The notes: generated from the sequence alone by a model not told the origin. Positions 7,853-35,700 are shown, numbered from the stretch's first letter. The stretch is DNA of 64,000 nt from an uncultured Acidimicrobiia bacterium (GCA_963821725.1 CAWGFA010000014.1:48797-112796), one strand, 5' to 3'. A program made the numbers and translations.

Positions 7853-9259
7853 TCAGGGCGGCGTCGGCGTGTTGGCGACGCCTGCGAAGTACGCGGACGC
7901 CGTGCACGGCCCGTTGTTGACTGTGGTCTGGCACGCGACCGCGATCGTCAGGTTCTGTCCGGAGGCGGGATCGACGATGATCGGCGTCACGAAGTGGTAG
8001 TCGAGATCGCGGAAGTTGTTGAGCCCTTCCTCGAACAAGATGTCAGTGCCGCGCAGGACTCTGAACGTGCCTGTGTCGCCGGCTGAGTTCTCGAACACGA
8101 CGTCGGTGATCAGCAGTTGCTTGCCTGCGGGAACCGGGGCCGGGGGCGAGGAGACGAACGTCGTGTTGTTCGGCACCGGCAGCGCGGTAGCCGGCGACGT
8201 CAGCCGGAAGGCGCCCGGTGTGCCCTGGCCGAGCACGCCGCCCGAACCAACCGCTCCTGGAATCGTCGTCGTCGTCGTTGCAGTGCCGCCACCACCACCG
8301 CGCCTGCCTGGGTCGCGCTCTCGGCTGCCTGGCTGGCACTGCCGGCTGCCTTGGTCGCGGCGCTGTCGGCGGCCTGCTGCGCGGTCTTGGCTTGGTTCGC
8401 GGCTTCGGCCGCGGCCGCGACCTGCGGCTTCACCGCGTCCTTCGCCGTGGATTCGATCACGGACTTGAACACGGTCTGCCACAGGATGAAGAGCACGAGC
8501 GCGGCGGCGAGCAGCGCGAGCAGCAAGCTTCAGCAACCACTTCGGGAGCAGCTGCTCCTGCACGACGACGCCGTCGGCGTACACCGGCGGGCCGGTTCGG
8601 TCCTCGTTCAGGACAGCGACCTGGAAGGGCAACGTCTTCGGATCGCCACGCCAGAACGTTCGCCTCGGGCGCACGGTGACGTTCGCGAACGTTGCCTTGC
8701 CCGGTGTGAGGTCCATGACCGTCGGATCGACGGTCACCTTCAGGTTGTCCTCTTCCTGCTCGATGAAGAACTGCACCGATCGCGACGTGTTGCCCGCGTT
8801 GTCGACGGCGAGCTCGGTCGTGCCTCGCCGCTTGAGCCGGATCGTTCTCGGCACCAGCTCGGCGTTCACCTCGTCGAACGGCAGGACCCGGATCGTTCCC
8901 TCGACGACCGCGGAGCCCGCGGTGTCTTCGCTCGACACGATGCGGACGGCGAACGGGATGTCACCGGCCGGCACCGACGACGACCGAGGTGGAGCGAAGG
9001 TGATCGTCACCTCTTCTTCGCCGCCTGGGAAGAGGTTCACCTCTGCGGGCTCAGCGGTCGCCCACTCTCCGACGTCACCGACCACGTCGATCATGAACTG
9101 ATCGACCACCTGGCCGGAATTGCGGATCCGATAACTCCAGGAGACGGACTCGCCGGGCTCGACTTCGTCTGCCTGGGACACAACTGCTGTCGCCACGCCC
9201 ATTAGTTCGGGAACGTAAAACTCGTCCCTCCGGATGTCCAGCACTCCCGGTCCGCCCAA
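7853..9259 (-). CDS. bitopic membrane protein with N-terminal beta-sandwich-like repeats; central segment apparently out of frame
   Basis: The 468-codon ORF is open, but its middle reads Arg-rich nonsense. The overlapping frame (track ORF 8200..8526) reads a clean TM helix LLALLAAALVLFILW plus an A/Q-rich linker. This implies two compensating frame changes (~8525, ~8290). N-terminal part has EPGESVSWSYRIRNSG and TELAVDNAGNTSRSVQFF. Start uncertain (TTG 9259 or ATG 9202). Confidence 0.55.
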   Translation of the reverse strand: MGGPGVLDIRRDEFYVPELMGVATAVVSQADEVEPGESVSWSYRIRNSGQVVDQFMIDVVGDVGEWATAEPAEVNLFPGGEEEVTITFAPPRSSSVPAGDIPFAVRIVSSEDTAGSAVVEGTIRVLPFDEVNAELVPRTIRLKRRGTTELAVDNAGNTSRSVQFFIEQEEDNLKVTVDPTVMDLTPGKATFANVTVRPRRTFWRGDPKTLPFQVAVLNEDRTGPPVYADGVVVQEQLLPKWLLKLAARAARRRARALHPVADRVQVRDRIHGEGRGEAAGRGRGRSREPSQDRAAGRRQRRDQGSRQCQPGSRERDPGRRGGGGGTATTTTTIPGAVGSGGVLGQGTPGAFRLTSPATALPVPNNTTFVSSPPAPVPAGKQLLITDVVFENSAGDTGTFRVLRGTDILFEEGLNNFRDLDYHFVTPIIVDPASGQNLTIAVACQTTVNNGPCTASAYFAGVANTPTPP

Positions 9260-9372
9260 AAGTGCCGACTGTCACGAACTTCCCTCTAGGGCAAAGACGT
9301 CCGATGTGACATATTGACCGCCTACGGATCGTCAGTCCCTGACGACCGACGGGTGGCAATTAGGAGAGCAGG

Positions 9373-12300
9373 GTGGACCTCTCCCTCAAACGGCTTTGGA
9401 AAACGGCGCGCGCCGCGCTCGTGATCGCACTTCTCGCCGCCGTTCCAATTGTGATCGCGACGCGCTCGGGAGCGTTCCCTCCCAACGGGCAAGGCGACCT
9501 TCAGCGCGTCTCGCTCAACACCGCGAACGGCGAGCTGGCGACCGGTGCAACACAGCCCGCCATCTCGGGCAACGGCCGCTACGTCGCGTTCACGACGCCG
9601 GAGAACAGCGCCGCGAGCAACGACACGAACGGCTCGAACGACGTGTACGTGCGGGACACGGTCGCCGGCACGACGACGCTTGTCTCCAAGTTCCAGAACA
9701 CGACCAACGGCGTGGCCGGCGACGACAGCTCACAGGCCGCGTTGTCCAACGACGGTCGGTGGGTGGCCTTCACGTCGAAGAGCACGCAGTGGGGTGGCAC
9801 GCCGTTCACGACCTCGGGCGTCTTCGTCGTCGACCGGGGAGCCCCTGCGCTCGACGGCAGCTTCCCGGCCGCGCCGGGCGCGCCCGTCCTGGTCAGCATC
9901 GCTCCGGGCACGACCACCTCGGTCGCGGGCGCAGCGGACTCACCGAGCATCTCGGCCGACGGAAGCCAGATCGCCTTCCACTTCGTGACCGGCGGTAGCA
10001 ACCGCACCGTCGTCCGTGACCGTGATCGCAACCACAACGGACTCGTCGCGGAGAACGCTCTCGACGAGGCGTCCATCGACGTCAGCAACGGTGCACCGGA
10101 CCGCAACGCACCGAAGGTCTCCGCTGACGGCAGGCACGTGGTGTTCGTCGCCACGGATCCGGCTGTGAGCGGTGGTGCACCCCGAGCAGTCGTGTACGAC
10201 CGCTCCGTCGACGGGAGGCCTGATCTCGATCAACTCGGCAACACCCGGTTCGCGGTCGCGACCACACCGGCCTTCAGCCTGACGGACGGCGACGGCAATC
10301 CCCGCCCTGACCCCTGCTGGGCACGACATCGGCGACGCCGAGCATCTCGGGCGACGGCAGCGTCGTGGTCTACGCGTACTCGCATCCGATGAAGACCCCG
10401 ACCCCGCCGGGCCGGCTGCCCAACGCGACGCTCGAGATCATCGCCGTGCACCGTGACGCGAACGGCGCCCCGATCAACCCGATCGTCGCCAGTGCCGACA
10501 CCACCAAACCGCTCGACGACAGGCGCCGGCGATCAGGACAGCGTCCGCCCGGTCGTCTCGGCGGACGGCCACTACGTGGACTTCCCGAGCTCGGCGACCA
10601 ACTTCACCTTCGCCGACGACCAAGGCGCGAGCTGCGGGACGGCCGTGACGGTGAAGCGGTGCGAGATCTATGCCGTCGACATCACCGCCGCCGAGCCCGA
10701 TCGCCGCGCCGGAGCTCGCGCTCGGAACAGTTCCTCAGCGGGAACAAGCGGAGCTTCGAGGTCGCGATCTCGGCGACCGGACAGTTCTCGGCGCTCACGT
10801 CCGACGCCACCGACTTCGTTGCTTCGAACGGCGACACGAACAACTCGCCCGACGTCTTCGTGAAGGAGTGGGAGGCGTCGCTGACGCGCCTCGTCGAGCC
10901 CGTCGCCGCTCCCGGACACGCCGGTCGGCACAACGTCGGGACCATTCACGGTGAGCGTCGACACGGAGAGCTTCGGCCCCTGGAGCGCGTCGCAAGTCAG
11001 CCTCGCCGGCGCCAATCCGGGCGACTTCACGGTCAGTCCGCAGAGCTGCACCCAACAGGTGTTCCACATCGGTCAGCCGTGCTTGGTGGCGATCACGTTC
11101 CATCCGACGGGTACCGGGCTGCGCAGCGCGGAGTTGGTGGTGACGCATGCGGGTCACGCCGTCCTGCAGGATTCGTTGCTGGTGCAGGGCGCGTCGGGGC
11201 TGCCGGCCAGCCCAGCTGTGACCGAGCGTGTGAGCCTCGGACCTCTCGGCGCCGCTGGAGTCGGGCCGACCGGCCAGATCAACGCCAACGACTCGGTGCC
11301 GGGATCGATCTCGTCCAACGGCCGGTACGTCACGTTCGTCACCACGGCGAAGCTCGACCCGGGTGACAACAACGGCAAGGAGGACGTCTACGTCCGCGAC
11401 CACCTGCGAGGAACGACCACGCTCGTGTCCGCCACCCCTGGCGGCAGCGCACCCACGGGCCCCGCGACCTTCTCGTCCTCGATCTCCGGCGACGGCCGCT
11501 ACATCGCGCTCAGCACCGTCGCGAAGCTGACGACCGATCCCGCCGACAACCACACGGATCGTCCGGCCGTCTACGTGCTCGACCGTGGACCGGCCGACGC
11601 GAACGGCGACTTCACCGGTGCGCCGGTGATGCACGTCGTGGGCCAGTCCGCGGCTGCCGCAGAGTGCGATCCCGACATCTCGGGTGACGGCTCGCAGGTG
11701 ACGTACTGGACCTCGACTCCGCTCCAGCCGCTACCAGCCGGCCAAGTCATCCCCTGCAGCGAGTCCAACATCACCCAGGCGGTCGTCGTCGACGAGGACG
11801 GCAACGGCAACGGCATACCGTACGAGCCGGGCGATGCGCTGGAGACCGAGCTGACGGTGCCGAACGTCGACTTCAATCAGTCGCGTCTGCCACGGATCTC
11901 GGCGGACGGTCTCCACGTCGTCTTCGAAGCCAACGAACTGTTCGCCTTTCCCGAGGATTCAACCGCGACCGAAGCATGGGTGTACGACCGTCGGATCACC
12001 GGGTCCGGCGCCAAGGATGCACCAGGCAACACTCGGTACGTGCTGGCGACAACCGGCGCGTTCACGCCGCTCGTGGCCGGGGACAACCGGTTGAGTCCGC
12101 TCCAGAACACGCTCACATCCGATCCGGTCGTGAGCGGCGACGGCTCGGTGATCGCGTACGACTTCCGCTACAGCAATTCGTTCGAACCACCGCCCGGCAC
12201 GCCGCTGGTGCTCAACAGCCCGCTCCCCGCGGACGACGACCAGATCCTGTTCGTCCGTCGCGACGCCGCGGGCAACATCGTCTCGAGCGACGATCGCATC

Positions 12301-13742
12301 CGAGGCTGGGCAGCAACCCGCCGGCCATCGGCAGCAACAACTCCCGCAATCCCGACGTCAGCGACGACGGGCGCTACGTCGCGTTCGACACGACCGCCAG
12401 GAACCTCCTGCCGAACGAGCCCGGCGACTGCGACGGGCCTGTGCACGGTCGCGGTCGTCGTCGACATCGACGCGCCAGGCCACGCCGGCGCGCCACAGTT
12501 GCTCGGACCGACTGCCGATCCAGGCAATGCGACCGGGATGCCCAGGGACGGCGAGTTCGGCACGGCGTTGTCGGGCGATGGACGGTTCGCCGTCTTCGGC
12601 TCGTTCGGCAGCGACCTGCTTCCGCCCGGCGCCGACACGAACAACCACGACGATGTCTTCCTGCACGAGCTGCGCCCGGTGGATCCGCCCATCCCGGCGA
12701 ACGTCGACTTCGGCGACGTCCCCGTCGGCAACGCGTCGCCGGCGTCGTTGGTGCAGTTCACGACCAACGACTTCGGACCTGCGCCGGTCCTCGGCCTTTC
12801 CCTCGTCGGCGCCAACCCGGGCGACTTCAACATCTTGGGTACCACCAACTGCTCGCCACCGTTGCCCGGACGCGCCGGCGGCCAACGTCGCGGCCGTGCC
12901 GAACTACGCGATCCTCCATCTCGACACGCCGTGCGTCGTCTCGGTGAACTTCACGCCGACGGCCTTCGGCACTCGCACCGCGACACTCCGGCTCGTCACC
13001 GGTACTCCCTTCCCGGCCAGCAACCCCGAAGGCCTCGCGATCCCGGCGGGGACACCGCCTTCTCGGATCACGACGGACGTGTCACTCGTGGGCGGACCGG
13101 GCGCGCCTGCGTTCCAGGTCGCTCCGGTGCCGCTCGACTTCGGTCTGCAGACGCTCGGACAGCTCACACCCGACCGGCCGCTGACCGTCACGAACGTGGG
13201 CGGCAATCCCTTCGTGATCTCCGGCGTGACACTGACCGGCGCCAACCCCGGTGACTTCACGATCACGTCGGATCTGTGCAGCGGCGTCGTGGTGAACCCG
13301 CTCGCCACCTGCGTGGTGCGGGTCGCGTTCCACTCGACCGGCGCCGGGCGACCGGTCGGCGTTCGTGCAGTTCGTCGACACGGCGGGAGGTTCGCCACAC
13401 CTCGCGCCGCTCATGGGTCGAACGCCGACGCTCGCCGTGAATCCCGGTGTCGCCGCGCCAGGGCGAACGGTTGACGTCATCGGCACGAGCTGGCTGCCGG
13501 GACAAGCGGTTGCATTGACGACGGTCGACACGCGCGACCCGACGCACGTGTTCTCCGAGTCACGCATCGCCATCGCTGACGGCACGGGCAACTTCCGGGT
13601 CGTCATGGTGATGTTCCCGAAGACGACCCCTGGATCGAGGTTCGTCATCGGCACTGGTCTGGCCCCGACGGCTACGGCGCGGGCATCGCTGTTGGTTGCG
13701 TTCGCGACGAGCCAGGCCCCGAACTTCCTCACGAGGGGCTGA
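9373..13742 (+). pseudogene. giant secreted/anchored protein: PD40 (TolB-like) beta-propeller repeats + choice-of-anchor-D/ASH-like modules
   Basis: Stitched from track ORFs 9373..10392, 10365..11366, 10453..10863, 10951..13254, 11976..12947, 12527..13474 and 13365..13742 (>=8 frame changes). N-terminal anchor ALVIALLAAVPIVIA. Repeated S.DGR.VAF.S...D.N...DV(Y/F)V.D motifs. Three GANPGDF(T/N)...C...V.F.P modules. RBS AGGAGAGC before GTG 9373. Confidence 0.65.
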
Positions 13743-13810
13743 CCGGTGGAGCGAAGAGGTCAGGACAACACATGAGCAGGACAAGGGCGAATGAAATCGA
13801 GGTACGCCGG

Positions 13811-14438
13811 ATGAGGCATCGCATTCCCACGTACGTGTACGCAACCGACCAGCTCTCCGAGGCCGGCATCGTGTCGAGGTTGCGTCCGCAGCCCGAAGTC
13901 GATCTCGTCGCCGAAGACGAGATCGACCGGGCCGTCGTCGGCGTCGTCGTCGCCGACTTCGGTCGACGCGGACGTCATACGCGTCATCCGAAGCATCCAA
14001 CACCTCGGTTGCTCCCGAGTCGCGATCGTCGTCCCCGACCCCGACGACACCGTGATCCTCACGTTGCTCGAGGCGGGCGTGTGCGGAATCCTCCGCCGCG
14101 CCGAAGCATCGGCCACGTCGCTGGTCACGCTCGTCGAGTCGGCGGCCCGCGGCGAGGGCTCGCTGCCGCCCGACATGCTCGGCCGGCTGTTGCATCAGGT
14201 CGGCCAACTGCAACGTCAGGTCCTCGCGCCGCGCGGGCTGACGATGACCGGACTCACCGAGCGCGAGATCGACGTGCTCCGCCTCGTGGCCGAAGGGTTC
14301 GACACCGAGGAGATCTCCAAGAAGCTCGCCTACTCGCAACGCACGATCAAGACCGTGATCCACGACGTCACGACGCGCCTCTGCCTGCGCAACCGCACGC
14401 ACGCGGTGGCCTGGGCCTTGCGCGAAGGCCTGATCTAA
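13811..14438 (+). pseudogene. LuxR/GerE-family transcriptional regulator with receiver-like N-terminal half, one frame change
   Basis: HTH LTEREIDVLRLVAEGFDTEEISKKLAYSQRTIKTVIHDV in track ORF 14052..14438. N-terminal half MRHRIPTYVYATDQLSEAGIV...VVVAD is in the 13772 frame. Switch at ~13965. Confidence 0.7.
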
Positions 14439-14447
14439 CCCGTCCTC

Positions 14448-14475
14448 CGTGTGCAACGCCCGGGCGTTGACCACC
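14448..14475. repeat. dispersed palindromic repeat, family A (single copy)
   Basis: CGTGTGCAACGCCCGGGCGTTGACCACC lies between convergent gene ends (14438 + / 14508 -). It resembles the 35-bp unit at 35989..36023. Confidence 0.45.
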
Positions 14476-14507
14476 GCTGGGGCGGTGAGCGTCCGGGCGG
14501 CGCTCCG

Positions 14508-16207
14508 CTACTTCTCCGCGAAGAGCTCGATCTCGGAGATCGCCACCGGCGGAGGCGGGGTCCCGATCGCCTGGTAGGTCGACACGATGTGGATCTCGAC
14601 CTGCGTGATGCCGTGACCGTTGCGAGATGCCGACCTTCTGTGGATCGGGCGCGTCCTTCAGGTCGATGTCCGACGTCTTCCCGGTGTTGAACACGAGGTG
14701 GAGCTTCTGCGCTCGACTGAACTGGGCGAACGAGTCGCGAGCGCCGTTCTGGATGATGGCCTTGTCGAGATCGACGGTTTGCCCACCGAAGGTCAGCACG
14801 AGGACGGGTTCGCCGTTGCCCGCAGGCGCCACCCAGAACGTGTTGCCCGCGTGATCGATGGCGTTCGTCGCCGGGTTCTCCGGTGTCTGCGTCGTCGCCA
14901 ACGCGCGCCGCCGGGTTCACGGGGACGAACTGTTGCGTCGTGTAGTCGTTCCACTTGTCCTTGACCGGCTGGACGAACGTGTCTTGGGCCCAGTTGCGGA
15001 GCGGCGGGAGCAACGCGAGCGCGGCCACGATGACGATCGCCGCGGTGGTGACGACCTTGCGCAGGGCGAGCATCGTCTCCTGGCCGAACTTCTTCTTGGC
15101 CTTGACGCCGGCCTTGCCCGGACGCTCTCCGACCTCGAGCTGCTTCACCTTCTTCTGTGGCCACAGCCGCTTCCACCACGGCCGCTTGACGACTTCAGCG
15201 CTGACGAGCGACTCGCCGCAACGACTGCAGAACTTCCGGGCCGGCGGGTTGCCTTCCCCGCACTCGCCGCAGATGAGGTCGCCCGGCTGCAGCCGGCGCG
15301 TCGGCTTGGTCTTCTGGATCGTCCGCGTCGCCTTGCGCGGCGCGGCCGGCTGCATGGCGTCGGGCTGCGCCGGCTCCGGCTTCGTGGGCGCGGTCGCGGC
15401 CTCGTCGAACGTCGGCTCGGGAGCCGACGACACGTTTCCGGCGACTCGGGCAGCGCCGGCGGCGGCTTCGCGACCGGCACCGCGAGGGCGGCCGACCATC
15501 GGAGCCTCCGCCGGCAGCGCAGGACCCGGTGGACCGGTGGCCCGGGCGGCACCGGCGGACCCGGAGGACCGGGCGGGCCACCCGTCGGCGGACCGGGCGG
15601 ACCAGGAGGACCGCCCCGGCGGCCATCGGCGGACCCGGAGGCCCAGGCGGACCAGCGACGGGCCGACCCGGCGGACCCGGAGGACCACCCACCGGCGGCC
15701 TCGGCGGACCCGGCGGCCCAGGCGGGCCACCGATCCCGGAGGACCCGGGGGACCCGGAGGACCACCACCCGGCGGCACCGGGCGGACCCGGAGGCCCGGG
15801 CGGGCCACCCACGGCGGACCTGGAGGACCTGGAGGTCCCGGTGGACCCGGCGGGCCCACCCCCGGCGGACCCGGAGGCCCCGGCGGACCCATCCCGGAGG
15901 ACCCGGCGGCCCCGGCGGTCCCGGCGGTCCCGGTGGCCCCGGTGGTCCCGGCGGCCGCCCGGCGGCCCTCCGGGACCGCCCGCTCCGGCGCGGCCGGACG
16001 ATCGCCGACATCGAGGTACGCCAGGCTGGTGATGCGTTGCAGCAGCGACTTCTTCTTCGGCTCCTCTGCCTCGAGCTGTTCCGCGGTCGGCACATCGACC
16101 TTCGGCGGCACGATCTTCTCGCCGGTGAACTCGAGGAACGAACCACACGTTCCGCAGAACGTGTCGGTGTCGCCGTTGTGGAACCCGCACTTGCGGCACA
16201 CGATCAT
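14508..16207 (-). pseudogene. double Zn-ribbon / (Gly-Pro-Pro)n / single-TM / C-terminal discoidin-like domain protein, coupled to the baseplate operon
   Basis: Stitched from track ORFs 14435..16237 and 14368..14901 plus a third frame for the C-terminus (NGHGITQVEIHIVSTYQAIGTPPPPVAISEIELFAEK*, TAG at 14508). Zn ribbons: CRKCGFHNGDTDTFCGTCG and CGECGEGNPPARKFCSRCG. TM helix VVTTAAIVIVAALALLPPL. ATG 16207 overlaps the TGA of track ORF 16204..16656, one of the frames stitched into the upstream gpI-like gene (ATGA). Confidence 0.6.
15520..15965 (-). repeat. coding Gly-Pro-Pro (collagen-like) tandem triplet repeat
   Basis: The minus strand reads long runs of [10 protein letters not shown]. All three minus-strand frames (track ORFs 14435..16237, 15145..16146, 15195..16199) alternate between GPP runs and Arg-rich text, so the true frame changes several times. 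Confidence 0.6.
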
Positions 16208-16745
16208 CGCCGCAACGACCTCCACCCGATGAACCACGTGGGCCGGCTTCGCCTGTATGACGATGCGGTCCAGTGCAGCTTCGTTGATCGCGTCGGGGTC
16301 GTCGACCTCGACGCGTACCGCGACACGCGGCGCGGGCTCGCCCGGGAAGTCGCCGCCCGGGTCTGCGATGCGGCGACCGCGCCGTTGTCGACCACGGTCA
16401 CCATCACCGCCGGTGAGAAGGCCGACGTGACGCGTCGAGTCCAGCGATCGTGCCTCGATGCCGGAACAGCTCGACGGCGTTCGCGATCGCGTCGCGCCGG
16501 CGCTCGACCGGCCAGCTCTCGTCGAGGAGGATGCCGACCCAGCCTCCGAGCCAGTCGAGGAAGTCGCTCGGCGCCATGGCCGGATCGATGTAGTACTCGA
16601 GGCAATCGAGCGTCGCCATCGCCGGCGCGATCACGTCGTCGAGCCCGCGGCACCACTCCATCGTGAAGAGGTCCTCTTGGTAGATCGCGGGCAGCATCTC
16701 GCCGATCGACAACGGCATCTCGACGCCGGGCATCACACCGCGCAT
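16204..16745 (-). pseudogene. phage tail protein I-like baseplate wedge protein (TIGR02242-type)
   Basis: Track ORF 16404..16745: LPAIYQEDLFTMEWCRGLDDVIAPAMATLDCLEYYIDPAMAPSDFLDWLGGWVGILLDESWPVERRRDAIANAVELFRHRGTIAGL. The C-terminal part (VEVDDPDAINEAALDRIVIQAKPAHVVHRVEVV) is in other frames. ATG 16745 overlaps the upstream stop (TGATG). The 3' end is uncertain. Confidence 0.6.
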
Positions 16746-18714
16746 CAGCGTTGCTCCACCTGGATCTGGTGGTCGAACGAGAAGACGAGGCTCGCGGGCG
16801 TCAACTCGATCCGCTGCGTGGCCTCGCCGCGCTCACGCGTCACCGGGTTCGCGCCGTACACGCGCACGTCGTTGACGATGTCGACGCCTCGCACTTGCTG
16901 GAGGACACCGAAGATGTCACCGGCCTGCACGTCGCGGCCCCACACCCAGCCTTCGCCCGCGGCACCGCCGACGAGCGGGTTGAGGTAGCGGAACAAGGCT
17001 CGTCAGGCAGTCCTCCTCGACCCGGCTCACACTGGCACGCGGCGCGGCGACGACGCGAGCGACCACGGTGACTCCCTGGTACATCGGCGGTTCGACCAGC
17101 ACCCTGGTTCCGATCAGGCGAGCCTCGTCGAGGCGATCGGAGACCTTCCGCAACGTCTCTTCGGACAGCAGGAGCTGGTCGAACTCGATCCCGACGGGAT
17201 CGGACGCACTGGCGGGAACCAGCAAGACCTTGACCGAGCCCGCATCGGGACCTTCGCCCGCGGTCAAGCACTTCACACGCGCCACTTCCGGCGCGGCCTG
17301 CTTCGTCAACAGCTCGTAGTCCTCCGCGGTCACCGCGCGGCTCCGCGTCCGCAACACGATCGGCCCGCGGCCCTTCGCCTCCTCGAGCGTCTCTCCGTCG
17401 ACGCCACCTTGGGCTGGCTCGCGGTTCTCGACCCGCGACACGTAGGGAATCGCGGTCCGCAAGACGCGTGATCGTTCGGCGAGCCACGTTGCCTCCGGAG
17501 CCGCCGCCGACGGTGTACATCGCCATGCGCATGTCGATGCCTTTCGGAGGCACCCAGCCGTACTGGTCGTACGTGCCGTCGAGCCTGACGCACGGCGGGC
17601 CCGAGCGTGATCTCACCGTGTACGGGATCGAACGTGTAGTGACGGTCGTCGGGTCCGCTGTCCGCGAACTCGGAGACCTCGGTCCACTCCTCCCAGCCGT
17701 CATCGGAGCTGCTCTCGAGCACGACGGGGCCGCCGCCGGCAAGGACCGGAGCGCGAAGCGTCCGGAAGTGCTGACCGGGCGTGCCGTCGGACGCGCCGAG
17801 CGCTTCGTTGCGAACGAGCTCCGCGTGCACGGCGTCGGTCGTTCCGCCGACCGTCGACGCGCTCAGACCGTGAATGAGCGGTGACGAGGTGTACGACGGC
17901 TGCCCGGACTCTGCTTCGACGACCCGTGCCCGCAGGTAGCCCCCTCGTTCCTCGCGGAACACCGACACGACGTGTGTCCGCGGCACGTGCAGGACGATCT
18001 GTCCGTCGCGGTTCAAGCCACCGGTGTCGTCGTGGTCGACCTCACACGCGTCCCACGCCGTGCCGTTCCATGCCTCCCAGACCAGCGGCGGGTTGTCGGG
18101 ATCCACGCCGACACCGTCGATGTGACACGTCACCTGCAGCGCGACCGCGCAACTCGGCACCGCTTCGCTCAAGGCGAGGTACAGGCAGTCGCCGACCTCG
18201 GGCGTCGTTTGGAACGCGGCGAACTGCGACGCGAGCTTGACCTGATCGGTGCGATCGTCCCACTCGTCGTCACTCGTCGGGTTGGTCGCGTCCGCGCCCG
18301 CCGGTCGCGACTGCGTCGAGCTTGCACGGGATGATCCGCAGCTCCTCCACGGTGGCGAACACGATGGCGTCGTCGATGTCGGTCCGCACCGTCGACACCT
18401 CGGTGCCCGGCTGGATCGGGATGATGCTCACCGCCGGCGTGGCGAGCCAGAACGTGACGGGCACACGTGCCGGCGTCGGCGGCAGCAGCCGAACGCCGAT
18501 CAGCTCGAGGAACTTGATGTAGAGCCGGTCGGGCACGCGGTTCAAGCCGGTACAGCAGCTGATCGGTCATGAACGCGAAGGTCTCGATCAACGTCACGCC
18601 CGGATCGGAGACGTTGTGGTCCGTCCACTCGGGGCAACGGCGCTGCACGAGTCGCTTCGCGTCGTCGACGAGGTCCTGGAACCGGCGATCGTCGAGGTTC
18701 GGTGCAGGAAGCAT
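16745..18714 (-). pseudogene. Baseplate_J-like baseplate assembly protein (Afp11/gp6-like, TIGR02243-type)
   Basis: MLPAPNLDDRRFQDLVDDAKRLVQRRCPEWTDHNVSDPGVTLIETFAFMTDQLLYRL (18169..18897 frame), then pieces in 18270..18545, 17330..18172, 16917..17462 (AVTAEDYELLTKQAAPEVARVKC) and 16745..16996. At least 5 frame changes. Confidence 0.75.
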
Positions 18715-19120
18715 CAGTAGTCGGTCCCGTCTTCGGGGATCGTGTAGAAGGGGAAGACCAGGTTGCGGCGGTCGTTCGTGTCGAGCGGCTGGTACTCGAT
18801 GTCGATCAGCAGCTTGCTGCCGTCGTCCCCGTCCCGTGATCACGCGGACGTTCTTGACCTCGACTCGCGGCTCCCATCGCAGGATGGACGTTCGCACCTC
18901 GAGCGAGAGTCCGGCGATGGAGTCGTGTCCGAGCCTCGGAACACCCAGTCGCGTACGCGGGAGCCGAACTCGGGCGCATCGGTCGCTCGCCCGGATAGGT
19001 CGCGAGGATCAGACGTATCGCCTCTTCGAGCTCCTGCTCGCGACGCACGAGCGCGATGCCGCCACGGCTGTTCGTCCGCAGTGGAAACGCCCAACCGGCG
19101 CCGATGTAGTCGTCGTGCAC
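18714..19120 (-). pseudogene. GPW/gp25-like baseplate wedge protein
   Basis: MHDDYIGAGWAFPLRTNSRGGIALVRREQELEEAIRLILATYPGERPMRP / EFGSRVRDWVF / EVRTSILRWEPRVEVKNVRVITG / DDGSKLLIDIEYQPLDTNDRRNLVFPFYTIPEDGTDY*, spread over at least 3 frames. One switch sits at the C4 run 18827-18830. Confidence 0.75.
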
Positions 19121-19130
19121 GCTCGCTCCG

Positions 19131-22784: not shown

Positions 22785-22940
22785 CGTGGTGATCTGCGGC
22801 TCGGTGTCCGGCTGGCCGTTGGCGCGCCGATGTGCGGCGGTCCAGACCCCGAGGGCGTCGGCACCGTCCGCACCGTCACGTTCATCCCGGACGGGTAGAG
22901 CGACTTGTCGAGGTACGACTGGAAGGACACGGCGAAGCTC

Positions 22941-25559: not shown

Positions 25560-25728
25560 TCAGCTTCCCGCGGCGGAGCGCATGGCGTTGATCTCTCCGA
25601 CGAACCTGCTGCGCACCGGGTGCTCCAAATCGAGAATGTGATCGAGCGGCCAGTGGAACCAGAACGCGAGGTAGCTCACTTCGCTCCAGAGACGGTCGTT
25701 GCCGACCGTCAGGATTCCCCCGGGGCAT
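25560..25728 (-). pseudogene. small conserved CIS-associated protein (W/H-rich, ~55 aa)
   Basis: Frame reads ...VGNDRLWSEVSYLAFWFHWPLDHILDLEHPVRSRFVGEINAMRSAAGS*. The only ATG (25728) is one base out of frame. Deleting one G from the minus-strand C4G5 run (25717-25725) gives MPRGILTVGNDRLW.... Not in the ORF track as a clean ORF. Confidence 0.45.
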
Positions 25729-26101
25729 CACCGGCGAGATCCACCGTGAACTCGTGCCCGCACGCCGGACAGGCGACGGCTGCTTCGGAGTGACCCTCCT
25801 GGTTGATACGACGGTAGAGATCCTGAAGGAACGACAGATCGGATGCGTAGAGCCGCTCGATCACGGTGCTGTCGACTGACGGCAGGTCGCCGAGATGCGT
25901 GACGGTGCGCTCGAGCAGCAACACCGTGAGGTACGCAGGGTTGGCACGGACGCGGGGATCGACTTGCGGCGCGATCTCGTCACGAGCGGTCGCGAGGCGC
26001 ATGACACCTTCGCGGTGCGTCCGGCCGCGCTCGTCCACGTAGCCGCGCGGGAGGACGAAGGCGAACTCGGTACGGAGCGCGGGATCAGTCGCGGACATCA
26101 T
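25709..26101 (-). CDS. conserved hypothetical protein in the tail-assembly-chaperone position, C-terminal CPACG knuckle
   Basis: Intact 130-aa ORF directly after the tube gene: FAFVLPRGYVDERGRTHREGVMRLATARDEIAPQVDPRVRANPAYLTVLLLERTVTHLGDL...VACPACGHEF. Assignment is positional only. Confidence 0.55.
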   Translation of the reverse strand: MMSATDPALRTEFAFVLPRGYVDERGRTHREGVMRLATARDEIAPQVDPRVRANPAYLTVLLLERTVTHLGDLPSVDSTVIERLYASDLSFLQDLYRRINQEGHSEAAVACPACGHEFTVDLAGDAPGES

Positions 26102-26103: not shown

Positions 26104-26568
26104 TCAGACGGAGACCCGCTGGATGAACTCACACACGATGGTGACGGTCTCCATCAGCACTTCCGATGCGCCCGCCTTCAGTGCACCGATCTCGATCTTG
26201 GACGGCCACGCCTCGGTGAGGTGGTAGCGCGCCACGGGCTCGCCCTTCGTGTTGAACATCGTGAGCGAGCACGACTTGCGCGCCGCGGCCACGTCGCCGA
26301 GGACGACGAGCTCGTGCCAGGCCGCCATCTCGATGTTCTTCGTCATACCGCGCTTCAGCGTGACGGTCGGCGGCGTGCGCTTGCCGGGCAGCTTCTTGAG
26401 GATGTTCTCCTTCGCGTCCGACTGGATGAAGTCGACGACGTCGATCGCACTCGAGATGCCGGACAGCTCAGAGAACTGAGCCATGCTGTGACCGTCGATC
26501 GACAGCTCGAATCGTGCCGCGGTCAGGGCGTCGTACTCCTGGCCCTGACCGACTCCTGCATTCGGCAT
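26104..26568 (-). CDS. contractile tail tube protein (Phage_T4_gp19 / TIGR02241-type)
   Basis: MPNAGVGQGQEYDALTAARFELSIDGHSMAQFSELSGISSAIDVVDF...KKLPGKRTPPTVTLKRGMTKN...YHLTEAWPSKIEIGALKAGASEVLMETVTIVCE. SD AAGGAG lies 8 nt before ATG 26568. Intact. Confidence 0.85.
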   Translation of the reverse strand: MPNAGVGQGQEYDALTAARFELSIDGHSMAQFSELSGISSAIDVVDFIQSDAKENILKKLPGKRTPPTVTLKRGMTKNIEMAAWHELVVLGDVAAARKSCSLTMFNTKGEPVARYHLTEAWPSKIEIGALKAGASEVLMETVTIVCEFIQRVSV

Positions 26569-26599: not shown

Positions 26600-28155
26600 T
26601 TACTCGCTCAGCCCGCTGCCGTCGGCGAACTGTGAGATCCGGAAGACGACGAACTCAGCCGGCTTCACCGGCGCGATGCCGATCTCGACGGTGAGGATGC
26701 CGACGTCGCGGTTCTCGGGCGGGTTGTTCTCGGCGTCGCACTTGACGAAGAACGCCTCGTGCGGTCGTCTGGCCGAACAACGCGCCGCCGCGCCAGACGC
26801 GGCGCAGGAACGCTTCGACCGTGCGCTTCACCGAGTCCCACAGCTTGAAGTCGTTGGGCTCGAACACGACCCAGTTCGTGCCGGTGAGGATCGACTCTTC
26901 GACGTAGTTGAAGAGTCGGCGCACGTTGAGGTAGCGCCACTCGGGGTCGGACGACAGCGTGCGTGCGCCCCACACCCGGATGCCCTGACCGGGGAACGAG
27001 CGGATGCAGTTCACCGCGACCGGGTTGAGCTGGTCGTGCTCGCCCTTCGTGATGTTCGTCTCGAGCGAGACGACGCCGCGGCACACCTCGTTGGCGGGGG
27101 CCTTGTGCACGCCGCGCGTGTCGTCGTTCCGGGCCCAGACGCCGGCCATCGTGCCCGGACGGCGGCATGAACGTCGGCGCGCCGGACAGCGGATCCATGA
27201 TCTTCAGCCAGGGCCAGTACAGGGTGGCGTACTTCGAGTCGTAGCCCGCGTCGTCGACGCGCCATTCCTTGACCTGCTGCGCGTTCAGCCCGGGCGGCGG
27301 GTCGAGGATCGCGACCCGATCGGCCATCAGCTCGCAGTGGGCGATCATCGCCAGCTGCACGGCCTTGAACTGCTCGAGCGTGATCATCTCCTGCTGCAGC
27401 GCGGCCGCGAGATCCGGCACCGACAGCATCGTGACCTCGTCCACCGCTTCGAGACCGGCGAACCCGGTGCGGTCCGCGGCGCTCGCCGACGTAGTCGTTC
27501 GGGCTCCACTTCGAGCGCGGCGGCGGACGGTGCCTCGCCACCGCTCAGCGCGAACGAACCCTTCGGCGGAACCGCGAGCGCGCCCGAGCCCTTCGTCTCC
27601 TCGATCGATGATGAGCTTCGACTCCGCCTTCACCTTCGTGACGACGTTGTTGGCGCCCTTGCGGGTGGTGACGTTGTCGAACACCTCCGCCTCGCGGCCG
27701 TTCTCCTTGACGATCAGCTTGAAGGTGTCGTCGCTCGGCTTCCGATGCATCGGCGATCTCGACGCTGATCTGATCGCCTGCCGCACCGCGCTTCGAGCGC
27801 TTCGATGGCGTAGCCCTTCTGCGCGTTGCCGCCCTCGGCCGGCGCCGGCAGCAGTTCGGCGCGTGCCGCCTTGGCGCCGTCGCCGTCAGCCGTTCGCGCC
27901 GATGCGCACGACGTAGGCGGCGCCGCCACCGTTGAGGAAGTACGCGTACACAGCGTGCGCGAGGTACGAGCCCGGCATGAACGCGCCGAAGTTGGACGTG
28001 AACTGCGTCCAGTTCGTGACCAGCGTCGGCTCGTTCACCGGGCCCTTCTCGGCGAAGCCGACGAACGCGGCCACCGCGGTGCCGACCCCTTCGATCGGCT
28101 TGGAGCCCGACGAGACTTCTTCGACGTAGACGCCTGGCGACAGATACGTTGGCAT
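26600..28155 (-). pseudogene. contractile tail sheath protein
   Basis: MPTYLSPGVYVEEVSSGSKPIEGVGTAVAAFVGFAEKGP (27886..28155), ...DRTGFAGLEAVDEVTMLSVPDL...YATLYWPWLKIMDPLSGAPTFMPPSGH (26665..27786), MAGVWARNDDTRGVHKAPANE...IRVWGARTLSSDPEWRYLNVRRLFNYVEESI (26655..27149), and C-terminus EEAFFVKCDAENNPPENRDVGILTVEIGIAPVKPAEFVVFRISQ...* (TAA 26600). At least 6 frame changes. SD AGGAGAGG before ATG 28155. Confidence 0.85.
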
Positions 28156-28340
28156 GCCCTCTCCTGAAACCTTGGGTCAACTCAGATCTCGCATGGTGCG
28201 GTTTCGAACGAGCGACGGCCAGACAAAGCGGTTGGCCTACGAGACCGATCATGCTGCCCGATCGGGCAAGCGCGGGCGCCCCATCATGCGCCCCGGTGCC
28301 TGAACCGGGATGGTGCGGACGGCGGTTCACGCTTGGTGTC

Positions 28341-29037
28341 GTGGTCGACGACGTCGACGCGGCACTCGCTGCGCTGTTCGCGGCATCGAAGGCGAAGGAC
28401 CAGAAGCTCGCGTGCGCGTTCGACGCGCCGACGCCGGACTGGTCCGCGAACGTCAAGTCGCCGACGCTCAACCTGTTCCTCGTCCAGATCGACGAGAACG
28501 TCGACGCCCGTCCCGGTGCGTGGGCAGACGTGCGGGACGACAACGGCCAGACCATCGGTCGCCAGCCGCCGCTTCGCCGGTACGACCTGCGCTACGTGCT
28601 CAGCGCGTGGGGCGACGGAGCACAAGTCGAACACCGGCTGCTCGGCGGCCGTGCTGACGCTCGTACCCGCCTACGACACGATCCCGGCCGAGCTGCTGTC
28701 GGGATCGCTCGCCGAGCTCGAGCTGCCCGTTCGGCTTCGCATCGCGCAGGACGACCTCGGCGTCAGCATGACCGACATCTGGTCGTCACTCGGTCAGCCG
28801 GTGCGAGCGTCGCTCACGCTCGTCGTCGACCGCGCCGCTGCTGCCGACGCTGGTGACCGAACTCGCGCCCCCGGCGGAGTCGCTCGACATCGGCCTCGCG
28901 GGTGTGCGCCCGCGCAAGGGCCGTGCGCCCGGCGCCCGATCTCTCGGACGTCGACTCGGTGGACGCGCGCGTGTCGCCCGACGAGGACGACGCCCCAGTG
29001 GACCAAGTACCGCGTCCGCGAGCGCATCCAGGACTGA
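28341..29037 (+). pseudogene. DUF4255 (Pvc16_N) tail-terminator/cap-like protein (Afp16-like)
   Basis: VVDDVDAALAALF...FDAPTPDWSANVKSPTLNLFLVQIDENVDARPGAWADVRDDNGQTIGRQPPLRRYDLRYVLSAWGDGAQVEHRLLGG (28149..28856 frame), then AVLTLVPAYDTIPAELLSGSLAELELPVRLRIAQDDLGVSMTDIWSSLGQPVRASLTLVV (28333..29037 frame). At least 3 frame changes. The start (GTG 28341) is inferred. Confidence 0.7.
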
Positions 29038-29041: not shown

Positions 29042-29826
29042 TCAGCGGCGCCGGGCGCTTGGCTCCGCTCGCTTGCGGTAGATCGACACGTGGCGGGTGC
29101 TCAGCGGCGTGAAGGTCTGGTAGTCCCACACGCGAGCGAGCATCGAGCTCGAGTGACGCCGCGCCGGCCAGTGCGTCGACGCCGGTCGACAGCAAGGGGA
29201 TGCATCCGCCACGGCCGGCGGCGAACGCCTGACGAGGTGACCTCCATGTGCTCGCCCACGAGCAGCTCCTCGTCGGGCCACCACTCGTAGACCTTGAGCA
29301 CGGCGCCCTCGGACGTCACCATGTCGATCTCGTATTGACGCGTCCCGATCGCCGGTGGAACGCCCGGTACGTACAACTCCACGATCACTCGTCCGCTGTC
29401 CGTCAAGACGTCGCTCGCGCGCTTGAGGCAAGCCCCCTGCGCCTCGTCGGTGGGCAGGCAGAACAGCGTGTTGAACGCGGCGAACACGACGCCGAACTCC
29501 GGTGCGGTCTCGGGAAGTTCGAGGCCTTCCATGTCGCCGACCACGGCGCGCACCGAGTCGCCACCGGGCTTGCCGGCGAGCCGGTCGAGCATCGATTGCG
29601 AGGCATCGACCCCCCACACGTCGAGCCCGCGCATGGCCAGCGCGCAGGCCACTCTCCCGGTGCCGACACCGAGCTCGAGCACGGGTCGCCCGTCCGCCAG
29701 ACGCTCGCCACGAGGTCGACCGTCGGGCCGGTGTCGGCCGCGAGCGAGTACCACGTGTCGTAGATGTCGGCGAAGGCTTCGCCGTACCCGTCGATCGGGA
29801 AGTCCGCGATCAGTTCAGGTACACGA
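29042..29826 (-). pseudogene. class I SAM-dependent methyltransferase
   Basis: YGEAFADIYDTWY (29403..30623 frame), VLELGVGTGRVACALAMRGLDVWGVDASQSMLDRL...FAAFNTLFCL (29101..29754), and C-terminus MLARVWDYQTFTPLSTRHVSIYRKR (29042..29617 frame). At least 3 frame changes. Start approximate. Confidence 0.6.
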
Positions 29827-30443
29827 GGACGTGATCGCCCTCGTTGGTGATCGAGGCGTTCACCACGGTCGTGCCAGTCCATTGCGGGTTCTCCATGTGG
29901 ATCTGCCCGAACGTGTTGACCGAGAGCTTGAACGAGAAATTCGATGTCGCCGGGACCCACAGGATCGAGGCGGCCGTGCACGTGCAAGGCCACCCACGGA
30001 TTCTCCGCGGTTCCTTCGGCGATGTCCCCGCTGCCACCCCATGGTGCGATGCTGCAGTTGAGCAGCCCCGAGGACATGTCCTCGCTGTTCGCCGACTTGT
30101 CCAGGCTCAAGAGGATGAACCGGTTGACCGGCACGGTCGGATGCTCGGACTTCGGTCGTCCGACAACGGCGGTGTTGTCGTTGCTCACATATCCCGTCGC
30201 CGCTACGGCGAGGTTGTTGTCCCAATAGCCGCCTTGGCCGTGGAACTTGACGATGTCCCACTGCACGGACTGGCCCGCGTGCGCGAACTGCTGCGGCGGG
30301 AACTCCTTCGGATAGTGCACGTCACACCGTCCGACGTTCACTCCCGAAGAGCCGGTTGCCATGCCGGCAGTGGCTTGCACCGCACCAACGGTGGCCGCCC
30401 CGGCTGATATCGCGGCGATGGCGATCTCGACGGGCTCAGGCAT
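29810..30443 (-). pseudogene. hypothetical protein with hydrophobic N-terminus (X5), one frame change
   Basis: MPEPVEIAIAAISAGAATVGAVQATAG...CDVHYPKEFPPQQFAHAGQSVQWDIVKFHGQGGYWDNN... (29403..30623 frame), then ...SNFSFKLSVNTFGQIHMENPQWTGTTVVNASITNEGDHVLVYLN* (29810..30037). SD AGGAGG lies 7 nt before ATG 30443. No family recognised. Confidence 0.45.
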
Positions 30444-30606
30444 TGGGCACCTCCTGACGCCGCGAACCGACGCAACGTCTGGAGCGAACCTAAGTGTCGG
30501 ACGAGATTTCGTGTCCGAGCGCGTGGGCGTCGTTTGGGGCAAACGGCGGTGCCCGCTCGGGCAACCGTGTGGCCCTCGGCAGTCGTGTGTCCGCCATGCC
30601 GACGAA

Positions 30607-30638
30607 AGGAGGGCGGACCCCACCCGGTCCGCCCTCCT
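30607..30638 (-). terminator. perfect 13-bp-stem hairpin between X4 and X5
   Basis: AGGAGGGCGGACC(30607-30619) / loop CCACCC / GGTCCGCCCTCCT(30626-30638). On the minus strand it lies ~90 nt after the X4 stop and is followed by TTTCGTC. Confidence 0.55.
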
Positions 30639-30728
30639 CGTCCGCCCGACCTAGATCGAGACTCTTGCGTCGCTCAGTTCGCTCACGCCGTTTGCATCGG
30701 AGCGGAGGTCCGCCCGCCCACGACCGTG

Positions 30729-31242
30729 CTATTCCTCCCAGAGCCGTCCGCCACCGTCGCCTCTGATGTAGAAGTGGTACGGGATGCTCCGGGACAGCGA
30801 GCCGTACTCGTAGTAGCTGACGGTCACCCTCCCGGCGAGATGCGCGACACCGGCACCCACGTTGAGCGGGCTGTCGAAGTGTGCGTCGACGTGGAACTTC
30901 TCCCAGTAGCCGATCTCCTGCACCTCGAACGAGACGTCGGCATTGCCGATGTACCGACCCTGCGAGTTGTACTGGCCGCCGAAGTACCAGTTGACGCCGT
31001 ACGCGGATCCTGGTGTCCGACGAGATGCCGGTCCATTTGTGCGTGACATAGAGCTGGCTCGGCTCAGGGTTCCATCCCGGGAGCTCGTTCGGGCTCTGCA
31101 CGCCCTTGGGGATCACGAAGACGTTGCTCGCGAGATCGACGGTCGACTCGGACCCGACCCAGTTGGCGACGTCGTGGACCGCGGTCCAGACATCCTTGAA
31201 ATCGACATTGACACTGACTGCTCCACCCTTGCCCTCAGGCAT
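30729..31242 (-). pseudogene. hypothetical protein (X4), one frame change
   Basis: MPEGKGGAVSVNVDFKDVWTAVHDVANWVGSESTVDLASNVFVIPKG...LYVTHKWTGISSDTRI (30490..31242 frame), then GSAYGVNWYFGGQYNSQGRYIGNADVSFEVQEIGYWEKFHVDAHFDSPLNVG...YHFYIRGDGGGRLWEE* (30729..31049). SD AAGGAG lies 8 nt before ATG 31242. Confidence 0.45.
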
Positions 31243-31259
31243 TTTGGTTCTCCTTGTAT

Positions 31260-32639: not shown

Positions 32640-32736
32640 CTGGTGTCTCCTGTGGGTTGGTTGATCGCGGGTCCGTGACACACTTGGGCCGCCAGAACCG
32701 CTCACTTGGTACGGCGTGACATCGCTGTGACGTCCC

Positions 32737-35700
32737 ATGGCACGCACCCCCACTCCCCTCGCCGGTCCGGTTCCGCTCCTCGGGCGGCTGCAGGAGCTGC
32801 GCGCCATCGAGGGAACGATGAACGCGGTCGAGGCTGGTCTCGGCGGATTGGTGGCGTTCCGGGGCGAGGGCGGGATCGGCAAGACCCGCCTCGCCGAAGA
32901 GGTGACGACCCACGCCGTGGCCCGCGGGCTGGTCGACGGCGTGGGGATCGGGCTGGCCGGACGGCGGCGCACCGCCGATGTGGCCCTGGCAGGAGATGCT
33001 CGGCCAGCTCGCGACGTTGACGCCGCGCAACTGCTCGACGACCACGGCGCCGCCGGCGAGCTCGAACCCGAACGGTTCACGCGGTTCCGCGCTGTCACCG
33101 CCGCACTTGCCGAAGCGGCCAACGAGCGGCCCGTGCTCGCTGGTGCTCGACGACGTCCACGCGACCGATCCGGGCGCACTGCTGTTCGCGCGGTTCGCGA
33201 TTCGCTCCCTGCGAGCGGTGCCGACGCACTCGTCGTGACGTGCCGTCCGATGGTCGACGTTCCGGAGGACGTGCGGAAGGGCTCGTCAACCTCCTCGATG
33301 AAGGCACGACCGTCGAACTCGCTGCGCTCGACGTCGACGCGCTCGTCTCGCTGCTCGACTGGGCCGGCGAAGCGCCGAACGGTCTCGCGGACCGACGAGC
33401 TGCTCGAGCTCAGCGGCGGCAATCCTCTGCTCGCGCTCGAACTGGTCGCATCCAGGACCGACGGCTCGATCGCGTCGACGCGGCGGCCGGTCGCCGCCGG
33501 TCAGTCGCTTCCTGTCGTCGCGACTCGATGACGTTCACTACGGAGGAGCGACACGGTGCTCGCCGCGGGCGCCTGCTCGGTCCCGACGTCGATCGACGAC
33601 CTGGTGGCTTCAGTTGCGGCGTGACGGCGGACCGATGCGCGGGCGGTCCGAACTGGCGCGGGATCGACGTGGGCGTGCTGCGTCGCACAGACGACGGCTT
33701 CGTCTTTTCGCACGGGCTGTCTTCGCGACACGCTGCTCGATTCGATCGCCGCGAGCGATTGCGGCGCTGCATCGCCGCGCGGCCGACGCGTTGGAGGCGC
33801 TGCCACCACCGCTCACGATCGATCGTCTCACGCGTGTCGCGCACCATCGTCTGTCCGCTGCGAACCCGATGGCCGCGCCGGAGGACGACAGCGGTTGCGG
33901 CCGCGGTCGACGCCACTCGCGCCGCCGCCAAGGCGGTCTCACACCGGTTCGCCTACGAGCCGCCGCCGAGCTGCTCGCGTCTGCGCAGACGGTCTGCACG
34001 CACGCACCGACCGGCCGGCGCCTCCACGACTGCTGCTCGAGCTGGCGCAGATGCGAGCTGGCCAGTGGTCGCTTGACGCACGCGCGCGAGACGTTCGCTC
34101 AGGCACTCCACACGTCGGACGCCGAAGCCGATCCCGAGGTCTACGCCGAGGCCGCCATCGGCCTGGGCGGCATCTGGGTGTTCGAGCACCGCGAGCCGGA
34201 CAGCGGTTGCCGCGTTCCACGGCGCATTGCGGAGCGCTCTCACACACGTCTCGGATGGGCGACCCGATCTCGCCATTCGCATACGAGCTCGTCTGGGAGC
34301 GGAGGAGCTGTACATGGGGACGCTCCGGTCTCGACCGCGTGCTCGAGGCGGTCGACGACGCGCGATCACTCGGCGAACCGACCGCGCTGGCCGAGGTGTT
34401 GTCGCTGCTGCATCACACGATCCTCGGACCGGACTTCGTCGACGAACGCACACCCATCGCGAACGAGCTCATCGCCACGTCGTCCGCGAACGGCGACGCG
34501 GTCCTCACGTTGATGGGTGTGTTGTGGCGGACCGTCGACGAGTTCCTCATGGGCGCACCGACGGCAGAACGTGCACTCACCGAGTTGCGCCAACGGGCCG
34601 ACGGCCTCGGTGTCCGCGCCGTGCTCTACGTCGTCGCGCTGATCGACGTGATGCTGCTCATGCGCGCGGGACGGCTGGACGATGCCGAAGCGGCGGCGAT
34701 GCGGTGTGTCAACCTCGGCATGGACGTCGGCGATGCCGATGCGCCCGGGTACTTCGGCGCGCAGCTGCTCGCGATGCGCTGGCTCCAAGGGCGCACCGAC
34801 GAGATCCTGCCCATGGCGCGCGAAGTGGCCGCCTCGCCGACGATCATCTCGATCGACCGTGCCTACCCGGCCTCTGTCGCCGCTCTCGCAGCGAATGCGG
34901 GCCCGGCGCACTACGAGGAGGCGAGGCGAGAGCTCGACAAGCTGCTCAACGAAGGACTGGACACGGTCGCACCATCGAGCACGTGGCTGCTGACGATGTT
35001 CGCGGTCGTCGAGGCAGCGGCGCGGCTCGAAGAACCCGAGTCCGCCGCTGTCGTCTACGACCTGGTGCTGCCGTTCGCGGGGCTGCCGACCATGGCGTCA
35101 CTGGCGGTCGTGTGTTTCGGATCCACCGAACGCACGCTCGGGCTCGCGGCGCGAACCGCAGGCCGGCTCGACGACGCCGTCGGCCATCTCGAGCGCGCAG
35201 TCGAGGCCGATCGACGACTCGGCAACCGTCCCGTACTCGCGATCACGCGGGCCGATCTCGGGCTGACGTTGCTCCGTCGGGGCGCACGTGGCGACCGAAC
35301 GCGCGCACAAGAGTTGTTGACGTCGGCGATCGAGGCCCTCAACACCATGGGACTGTCGCGCCGGGCCGCGATGGTCGAAGCCGACGTCGCGGCGTTCGGC
35401 GAACCGACTTCAACGTCAATTCGTTCCATCCGCTATCTCGACGGCTCGTGGGAGATGCAAGCGGACGCTGAGCGAGTGGTCGTTTCCGACTCGGCCGGCA
35501 TGCGCCATCTCGCGCGCCTGCTCTCGTCGCCGAACCGCGACATCCCAGCGACCGAGCTCGCCGGCACCGGCATCGAATCCTCGCGTCAGGAGGTCGTGGA
35601 CAGAGAGGCACTCGTCCGCTACGGCCGCCGTATCGAATCGTTGCGGCGCGAGCTCGAGGACGCCGAAGCCGACGCCGACATCGAGCGCTCCGCTCGTCTG

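Follow-up and report, generated by a model that had tools for sequence, protein, structure and literature searches.

Single-base insertions across a contractile injection system locus in an Acidimicrobiia contig are very probably consensus errors of long-read assembly

We analyzed a stretch of 64,000 nucleotides from an uncultured Acidimicrobiia bacterium (GCA_963821725.1, CAWGFA010000014.1:48797-112796; hereafter "the window"), in which the genes of a contractile injection system (CIS) and several of their neighbors are broken by numerous small insertions and deletions (indels). Judged from the sequence, these frame switches are very likely consensus errors of a long-read metagenome assembly and not mutations in the organism, and it is highly improbable that the bulk of them is real. 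We favor this interpretation because the ratio of nonsynonymous to synonymous substitution rates (dN/dS) is low once frames are repaired, in-frame stops are essentially absent, the indels are biased toward insertion and blind to codon phase, they end in the middle of a gene, they recur in the flanks, a related genome carries the same signature at its own sites, and the island is intact in a contig from another relative. The concentration of indels is very probably not a real biological feature, and the CIS is a typical representative of a known kind: the underlying genes most likely make up an ordinary, functional lineage-II (actinobacterial-type) CIS and its neighbors.

Density and extent of the indels

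Frame switches were located by two methods. The first, a reference-free tracker, is a Viterbi decoder over the six reading frames and a non-coding state, scoring codon log-odds trained on the intact open reading frames (ORFs) of the flanks and charging a penalty for each change of frame; junctions resembling ordinary gene boundaries were excluded. The tracker placed 50 switches between 7853 and 34400 and 8 in the other 37.5 kb (1.88 versus 0.21 per kb), a contrast that stayed at 6-9x whether the frameshift penalty was -6, -9, or -12 (binomial p <= 3e-7). The second method was frameshift-aware protein-versus-DNA alignment with intact proteins of isolate genomes and of the closest relative found (L015, described below). 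When isolates served as controls for the alignments, Krasilnikovia (L005) gave 0 frameshift calls in conserved genes, and Phytohabitans (L027) gave 2 in VgrG, 1 in gpI, and 0 in most genes. A poorly conserved 770-aa gene attracted 4-6 spurious calls in both isolates; because distant references give such false calls, counts obtained through them are unreliable for the giant eCIS_core gene, and the close L015 ORF was used for that gene instead. Two further approaches were discarded: a frame plot of GC content at third codon positions (GC3) with GC3-filtered ORF lists, which was too noisy in DNA of 68% GC, and a tblastn search of all reference ORFs without composition correction, in which off-frame high-GC matches swamped the output.

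The alignments, complemented by the tracker for 8.2-15.7 kb, yielded ~140 frame-breaking indels between 8.24 and 34.32 kb (~5 per kb), compared to ~9 to 19 in the 37.5 kb outside (0.2 to 0.5 per kb). The two affected regions are:

8242-34317: indel-dense zone; ~140 indels, mostly single extra bases, from the tracker, the frameshift-aware alignments, and nucleotide alignment to L015
52468-55495: second, smaller indel patch; 6 frameshifts, in an acyl-CoA dehydrogenase N-terminus, a P450, an ABC1 kinase (3), and a CoA-binding domain

A first-pass annotation of this DNA had described frame switching as far denser at ~7.9-34.4 kb, and the contrast proved stronger than claimed. Its estimates by gene (at least 6 switches in the sheath, many in VgrG, at least 8 in the giant protein, and several in the 5' part of the STAND gene) became 9, 11-13, 37, and 18, respectively, and its picture of a remaining ~37 kb with few switches and long intact ORFs was borne out. 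What had to be given up was its opposition of the CIS island to the flanks: the affected DNA is a patchy 26-kb zone that overlaps the island, contains clean patches, and takes in non-CIS genes.

Extra bases within the zone varied in density between 0 and 11 per 500 bp and reached 6-11 per 500 bp in 21.0-25.5 kb, with 33 window-specific 1-nt insertions in 22.8-25.57 kb. Clean patches spanned 1 to 2.3 kb and were found at 25.57-26.6 kb (the tube gene and two small genes) and 30.6-32.9 kb. The zone is not coextensive with the CIS, whose structural genes occupy ~15.9-29.0 kb, and it covers unrelated genes too; the tracker found 12 frameshifts from 8242 to 13960, among non-CIS genes. Both ends of the zone fall inside genes, and a search for mobile-element boundaries there found no tRNA, no Rfam match, and no flanking direct repeats. 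The break-off within the STAND gene, the clean patches of the island, and the second patch in the flank all indicate that the indels track position along the contig and not genes or operons.

The second patch lies in ordinary metabolic genes, which argues that the error process is not specific to the injection-system island. Frameshifts in this flank are backed by domain continuity in the P450 (53311), the ABC1 kinase (54745), and the CoA-binding protein (55495), and near 52470, close to the start of the acyl-CoA dehydrogenase, the sequence CGCG[G]CGGAG contains an extra G. The flanks carry the same type of error in their ordinary metabolic genes, at low density.

Comparison with related genomes

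L015 is a 3.34-Mb contig (CAWDIH010000001.1) from an uncultured Acidimicrobiia metagenome-assembled genome (MAG) of the Microflora Danica project, and it is syntenic over window positions 16.1-36.2 kb at 81% nucleotide identity. This contig carries the same signature as the window (59 extra bases, 16.9% of them equal to a neighbor, mostly +1), with its dense patch elsewhere, at 15100-20499 (window-equivalent about 16-21 kb). Its baseplate J gene contains 16 frameshifts (5 in the window) and its sheath gene 3 (9 in the window), with 7 in VgrG and 6 in gpI, while its STAND, Pvc16_N, and tube-like genes are intact. Indel positions differ completely between the two genomes. In a 306-kb JGI contig from a near relative, whose sheath is 89% identical, every gene of the island is intact, as is the STAND gene, and their order is the same, judging by that contig's gene calls.

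The Microflora Danica catalogue rests on Nanopore R10.4.1 reads processed with mmlong2 (metaFlye, then one round of Medaka) and received no short-read polishing (PMC12313526). According to the same group, R10.4 consensus is near-finished only at ~40x coverage (PMC9262707).

Signature of the indels

Insertion contexts were compiled from 96 window-specific 1-nt insertions placed by nucleotide alignment to L015. Eighty of these stand as single bases (run length 1), just 4 belong to runs of at least 3, and the extra base equals a neighbor in 16.7% of cases versus the 51% expected from the same bases at random positions (p<0.0005). We therefore rejected a homopolymer explanation, and with it the association with G/C runs that the first-pass annotation had reported; a net -1 switch at 10311 does sit at a C4 run. 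The missing link to homopolymers weakens the case for a "classical homopolymer error" but not for a consensus error. Net +1 events outnumbered net -1 events by 39:14 in the alignments and 43:15 in the tracker, so that insertions exceed losses by ~3:1, and insertions were spread over the three codon slots as 16/13/13, blind to codon phase.

One way in which consensus errors of this kind might arise is from single-nucleotide polymorphisms among co-assembled strains, if the polisher wrote both alleles in series and so left a 1-nt insertion unlike its neighbor. Such a process would account for the neighbor-unlike bases, the insertion bias, and a kb-scale mosaic resembling recombination blocks, and several sheath cases can be read as synonymous allele pairs (e.g., AC[G]A, GGC[T], GA[A]G). 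Under this process, insertions should be scarce between codon positions 1 and 2, whereas the slots in the window are uniform and those in L015 (2/10/7) trend the other way. Moreover, adjacency to the transition partner (0.47-0.49) is no higher than a hand-estimated expectation of ~0.49 with neighbor-equal insertions set aside, and we consider serial alleles an unlikely source of the insertions.

Systematic base-calling errors at a DNA-modification motif denser in the zone are very improbable: by eye, TCGA, GATC, or CGATCG-like strings appear in many insertion contexts, but they are common in high-GC coding DNA; the effect should be genome-wide and not in patches ending mid-gene, and the homologous sites in L015 are spared.

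Selection on the repaired frames

Between the window and L015, dN/dS in repaired frames was 0.24 overall (0.02-0.48 per gene) at a dS of 0.69, and the overall value is an overestimate since codons beside frameshifts are mis-decoded. The repaired frames are under strong purifying selection. In the STAND gene, all 18 frameshifts lie in codons 63-522, within the first 49% of the gene (p ~3e-6 under uniformity), and none in codons 523-1067 (the last 545), yet the dirty and clean halves have similar dN/dS (0.19 versus 0.14) and dS (0.686 and 0.684). Lesions confined to one half of a gene that is still under selection there are unlike those of a pseudogene. The STAND protein has 81% amino-acid identity to an intact 1068-aa L015 homologue and no in-frame stops. 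Alongside the ~140 indels, in-frame stops are essentially absent, as the first-pass annotation had noted for the segments between switches; the handful that were flagged change with the reference protein used and are probably alignment artifacts.

Real decay, in which the CIS island and its neighbors would be recently inactivated pseudogenes gaining frameshifts, might be suspected from the concentration of frameshifts in an accessory-type island and from a second related MAG (L015) whose island is frameshifted as well. Low dN/dS and its similarity across the two STAND halves count against decay, and ~140 indels without a reproducible nonsense codon would be implausible under it. Substitutions outnumber indels roughly tenfold, so neutral decay with this many indels should have brought substitutions in the hundreds and stops in the tens. 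Deletion bias is a known trait of bacterial pseudogenes, whereas insertions predominate here. The indels also halt abruptly in mid-gene (STAND), spare patches of 1-2 kb, and occur as the same type in housekeeping-type flank genes. Finally, none of their positions is shared with L015, and the near relative's island in the JGI contig is intact. We regard decay as extremely improbable.

The first-pass annotation had favored sequencing or assembly indels over pseudogene decay and had suggested aligning the locus to intact homologues and computing dN/dS. Those analyses gave frameshifts without relaxed selection, and every test (dN/dS, stops, insertion bias, the mid-gene end, L015, and the JGI contig) agrees with its preference.

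Origin and consequences of the patches

Consensus error very probably accounts for these observations through a single process acting across the whole window, one that adds single bases, less often removes them, and is unrelated to homopolymers or codon phase. Its intensity is ~0.2-0.5 per kb in most of the window, climbs to 5-20 per kb in kb-scale patches from 8.2 to 34.3 kb, and is mildly raised again at 52.5-55.5 kb. The patches may mark locally poor read support in consensus or polishing, whether because coverage drops, because a stretch stayed close to the quality of raw reads, or because strains are mixed. Alternating dirty and clean blocks of kb scale, with ends inside genes, fit locally poor read support, which we consider the most likely cause of the patchiness.

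Several points weigh on the other side. The assembly behind the window is probably Nanopore-only, with the platform taken from its relative L015 and not from the window's own record. Textbook Nanopore error consists of deletions in homopolymers; insertion bias with avoidance of homopolymers is unlike this. In addition, the dirty patches of both MAGs overlap the same island. This overlap could be a coincidence, given that L015 was found through the island, or could have an island-specific cause.

If the frame switches are consensus errors, gene calls, pseudogene counts, and any inference of a "decayed injection system" from this contig would be wrong, and the same wrong inferences are probable for related MAGs built from long reads only. 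These errors, which are patchy, biased toward insertion, and found outside homopolymers, would escape polishing or filtering that focuses on homopolymers. Annotation would have to allow for frameshifts, or patches of low support would have to be re-polished at the read level.

Genes of the locus and its surroundings

The CIS gene set is complete on the minus strand from ~15.9 to 28.2 kb, with the Pvc16_N terminator divergent on the plus strand. Genes are ordered as sheath, tube, a 130-aa gene, a DUF6760-like ORF, the eCIS_core/DUF4157 giant, two gp19-like genes, CIS_tube/LysM, VgrG, gp25, baseplate J, gpI, and a zinc-ribbon gene, collinear with loci in Spirilliplanes, Krasilnikovia, Kitasatospora, Streptomyces, and others. 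Alignments to proteins of L002 and L005, together with Pfam labels, show that the core genes of a lineage II (class IId-like) CIS are present and collinear. Features of the zone, with their frameshift counts, are:

32737-35952, plus strand: STAND/AAA_16 regulator; 18 frameshifts, all at 32926-34317 (AAA_16 label from a neighboring homologue in the JGI contig)
30582-32925: clean patch; a DUF922-like gene and its neighbor, no frameshifts
29045-30621, minus strand: SAM methyltransferase and an unknown ORF; 4 and 2 frameshifts
28156-29034, plus strand: tail terminator, Pvc16_N/DUF4255; 6 frameshifts (Pfam label from the JGI homologue)
26603-28159, minus strand: contractile sheath; 9 frameshifts
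26104-26568, minus strand: tube (gp19 family); intact, 154 aa, with ribosome-binding site GAAGGAG
25709-26101, minus strand: tail-assembly-chaperone-like gene; intact, 130 aa, 98% identical to L015
25560-25727, minus strand: DUF6760-like ORF; in the -1 frame, without a start codon of its own
22944-25544, minus strand: giant eCIS_core (DUF4157) gene; 37 frameshifts relative to the intact 840-aa L015 ORF (Pfam eCIS_core found on the L002 homologue)
21909-22928, minus strand: two tube-like (gp19) genes; 5 and 7 frameshifts
21099-21620, minus strand: CIS_tube/LysM tube-initiator gene; 8-11 frameshifts
19134-21081, minus strand: VgrG/gpD spike; 11-13 frameshifts
18717-19109, minus strand: gp25/GPW baseplate wedge; 3 frameshifts
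16757-18718, minus strand: baseplate J; 5 frameshifts, all single extra bases
15878-16743, minus strand: gpI-like baseplate gene and the start of the zinc-ribbon protein; 3 and 3-5 frameshifts
7856-14435: non-CIS genes also affected; COG1470-like (minus strand), PD40-repeat proteins (plus strand), and a LuxR regulator

The sheath frameshifts fall at about 27890, 27870, 27779, 27736, 27609, 27505, 27484, 27150, and 26765, and after repair the protein shares 89% identity with intact sheaths of 515 aa. The minus-strand ORF at 7853-9259 is COG1470-like and not a sheath, with only a weak Pfam match to Cep192_D3. Three frameshifts mask a transmembrane and Ala-rich middle section of this COG1470-like protein. 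Next to it, at 7453-7854 (minus strand), lies a DUF4280 (PAAR-like) gene, separated by 20 kb from the other genes of the injection system. We noticed no Afp15-type AAA+ ATPase in the window, in which no search was aimed at one; the ATPase nearby is the STAND/AAA_16 regulator.

Three other observations concern DNA in or near the zone. The 3' end of the zinc-ribbon gene region (15541-15983) is GC-rich and periodic at 9 nt (GGACC / CGGCGG units in 9-12 overlapping copies); its translation would be a Gly/Pro-rich, collagen-like stretch, and the frame tracker is unreliable there. Just 3' of the STAND stop (35952), at 35989-36049, a perfect 26-nt direct repeat, TCACGTGTGGTCAGACGCCCGGGCGT, occurs in two copies 35 nt apart (start to start) and could be a regulatory site or a duplication. 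In the flank at 39373-41527, two acyl-CoA-dehydrogenase-like units form one chain with a change of frame at 40491, beyond which the upstream frame stays open for a further 552 nt. Two adjacent FadE-type genes, the first frameshifted near its end, would give this picture, as would a single fused gene.

A conserved -1 frame change in the island

One frame switch of the island has a different origin. The junction at 25717-25725, a C4G5 run that the first-pass annotation had taken for an indel, is also present in isolate genomes and is, on sequence conservation, a natural -1 frame change. The 130-aa minus-strand gene ends GCC CCG GGG GAA TCC TGA; the same sequence is found in L015 and in isolate genomes, with GGA for GAA at most loci. 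The ~50-aa ORF that follows (DUF6760, E 1.9e-5) is in the -1 frame in all 26 of the related loci in which both genes could be aligned (window 25560-26101 on the minus strand, L002 10447-11000, L015 10503-11040, and 23 others). A TGA located 16 nt ahead of the 0-frame stop bounds this ORF on its 5' side, and in 18 of the 26 loci the ORF contains no in-frame ATG, GTG, or TTG.

Our data suggest, with reasonable though not strong confidence, that the junction is a programmed -1 ribosomal frameshift fusing the 130-aa chaperone-like protein to a ~50-aa DUF6760 extension, immediately upstream of the eCIS_core giant. Synonymous positions do not vary in the run CCG GGG G(G/A)A, which lies 2-4 codons ahead of the stop. 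Within it, a slippery site C_CCG_GGG (about 25717-25725) is found in the window and 9 loci, and the others keep a run of 5-6 G in place, giving G_GGG_GGA where there are six; both sequences match the slippery pattern X_XXY_YYZ. All six sequences that were folded have a hairpin starting at the 0-frame TGA, with Z-scores of only -1.4 to -2.7 and arms that are also constrained by coding. In the window the hairpin is GACGGTCG-GCAA-CGACCGTC, an 8-bp stem shared with L015 and unrelated in sequence to the stem at the same position in actinomycetes (GACGUACGCG...CGCGUACGUC), which shows one compensatory pair in L027. The 130-aa protein matches PHROG 508, "tail assembly chaperone" (E 3.7e-6); it matched no Pfam family, and a PDB sequence search returned only weak Trm112 zinc-ribbon matches.

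Key papers on extracellular contractile injection systems (eCIS) mention neither a frameshift nor a tail assembly chaperone, and one of them states that lineage II CIS lack an Afp14-type tape measure. By analogy with phage tails, the eCIS_core giant may serve as a tape measure. If the frameshift is genuine, the G/GT arrangement would have been carried into the lineage-II CIS of Actinomycetota, including the Streptomyces and Kitasatospora loci, the DUF4157 giant might replace the "missing" tape measure in these systems, and current annotations would split one recoded gene into two small hypothetical proteins.

Comparison with known systems

The indels of the window resemble the residual indels of Nanopore-only MAGs (PMC12313526, PMC9262707) in that 1-nt frame-breaking changes split gene calls while the proteins stay family-like. 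Published accounts of such indels stress homopolymers, whereas those of the window avoid homopolymers, are insertion-biased, and occur in kb-scale patches.

With respect to the injection system, the window shares both gene set and order with the Streptomyces coelicolor CIS (lineage II/class IId; PMC10066040, PMC10020575, PMC6899500). The lack of an Afp14-type tape measure is common to the window CIS and the lineage II/class IId CIS of Actinomycetota. The window differs from these systems in its host, an Acidimicrobiia-like lineage, and in its neighbors, which are the STAND/AAA_16 regulator, the methyltransferase, and the PD40-repeat proteins.

Programmed -1 frameshifting of tail assembly chaperones is described for lambda G/GT and P2 E/E+E' (Xu, Hendrix and Duda 2004, as cited in PMC3711429). 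As in these phages, the candidate pair in the window has a chaperone-like gene between the tube gene and a long protein, a slippery run a few codons before the stop, a -1 ORF without its own start, and a hairpin a few nucleotides downstream that may be stimulatory. Unlike them, it sits in a contractile injection system and not in a phage, its extension is only ~50 aa (DUF6760), and its slippery sequence is a G run (CCG GGG GGA or GAA).

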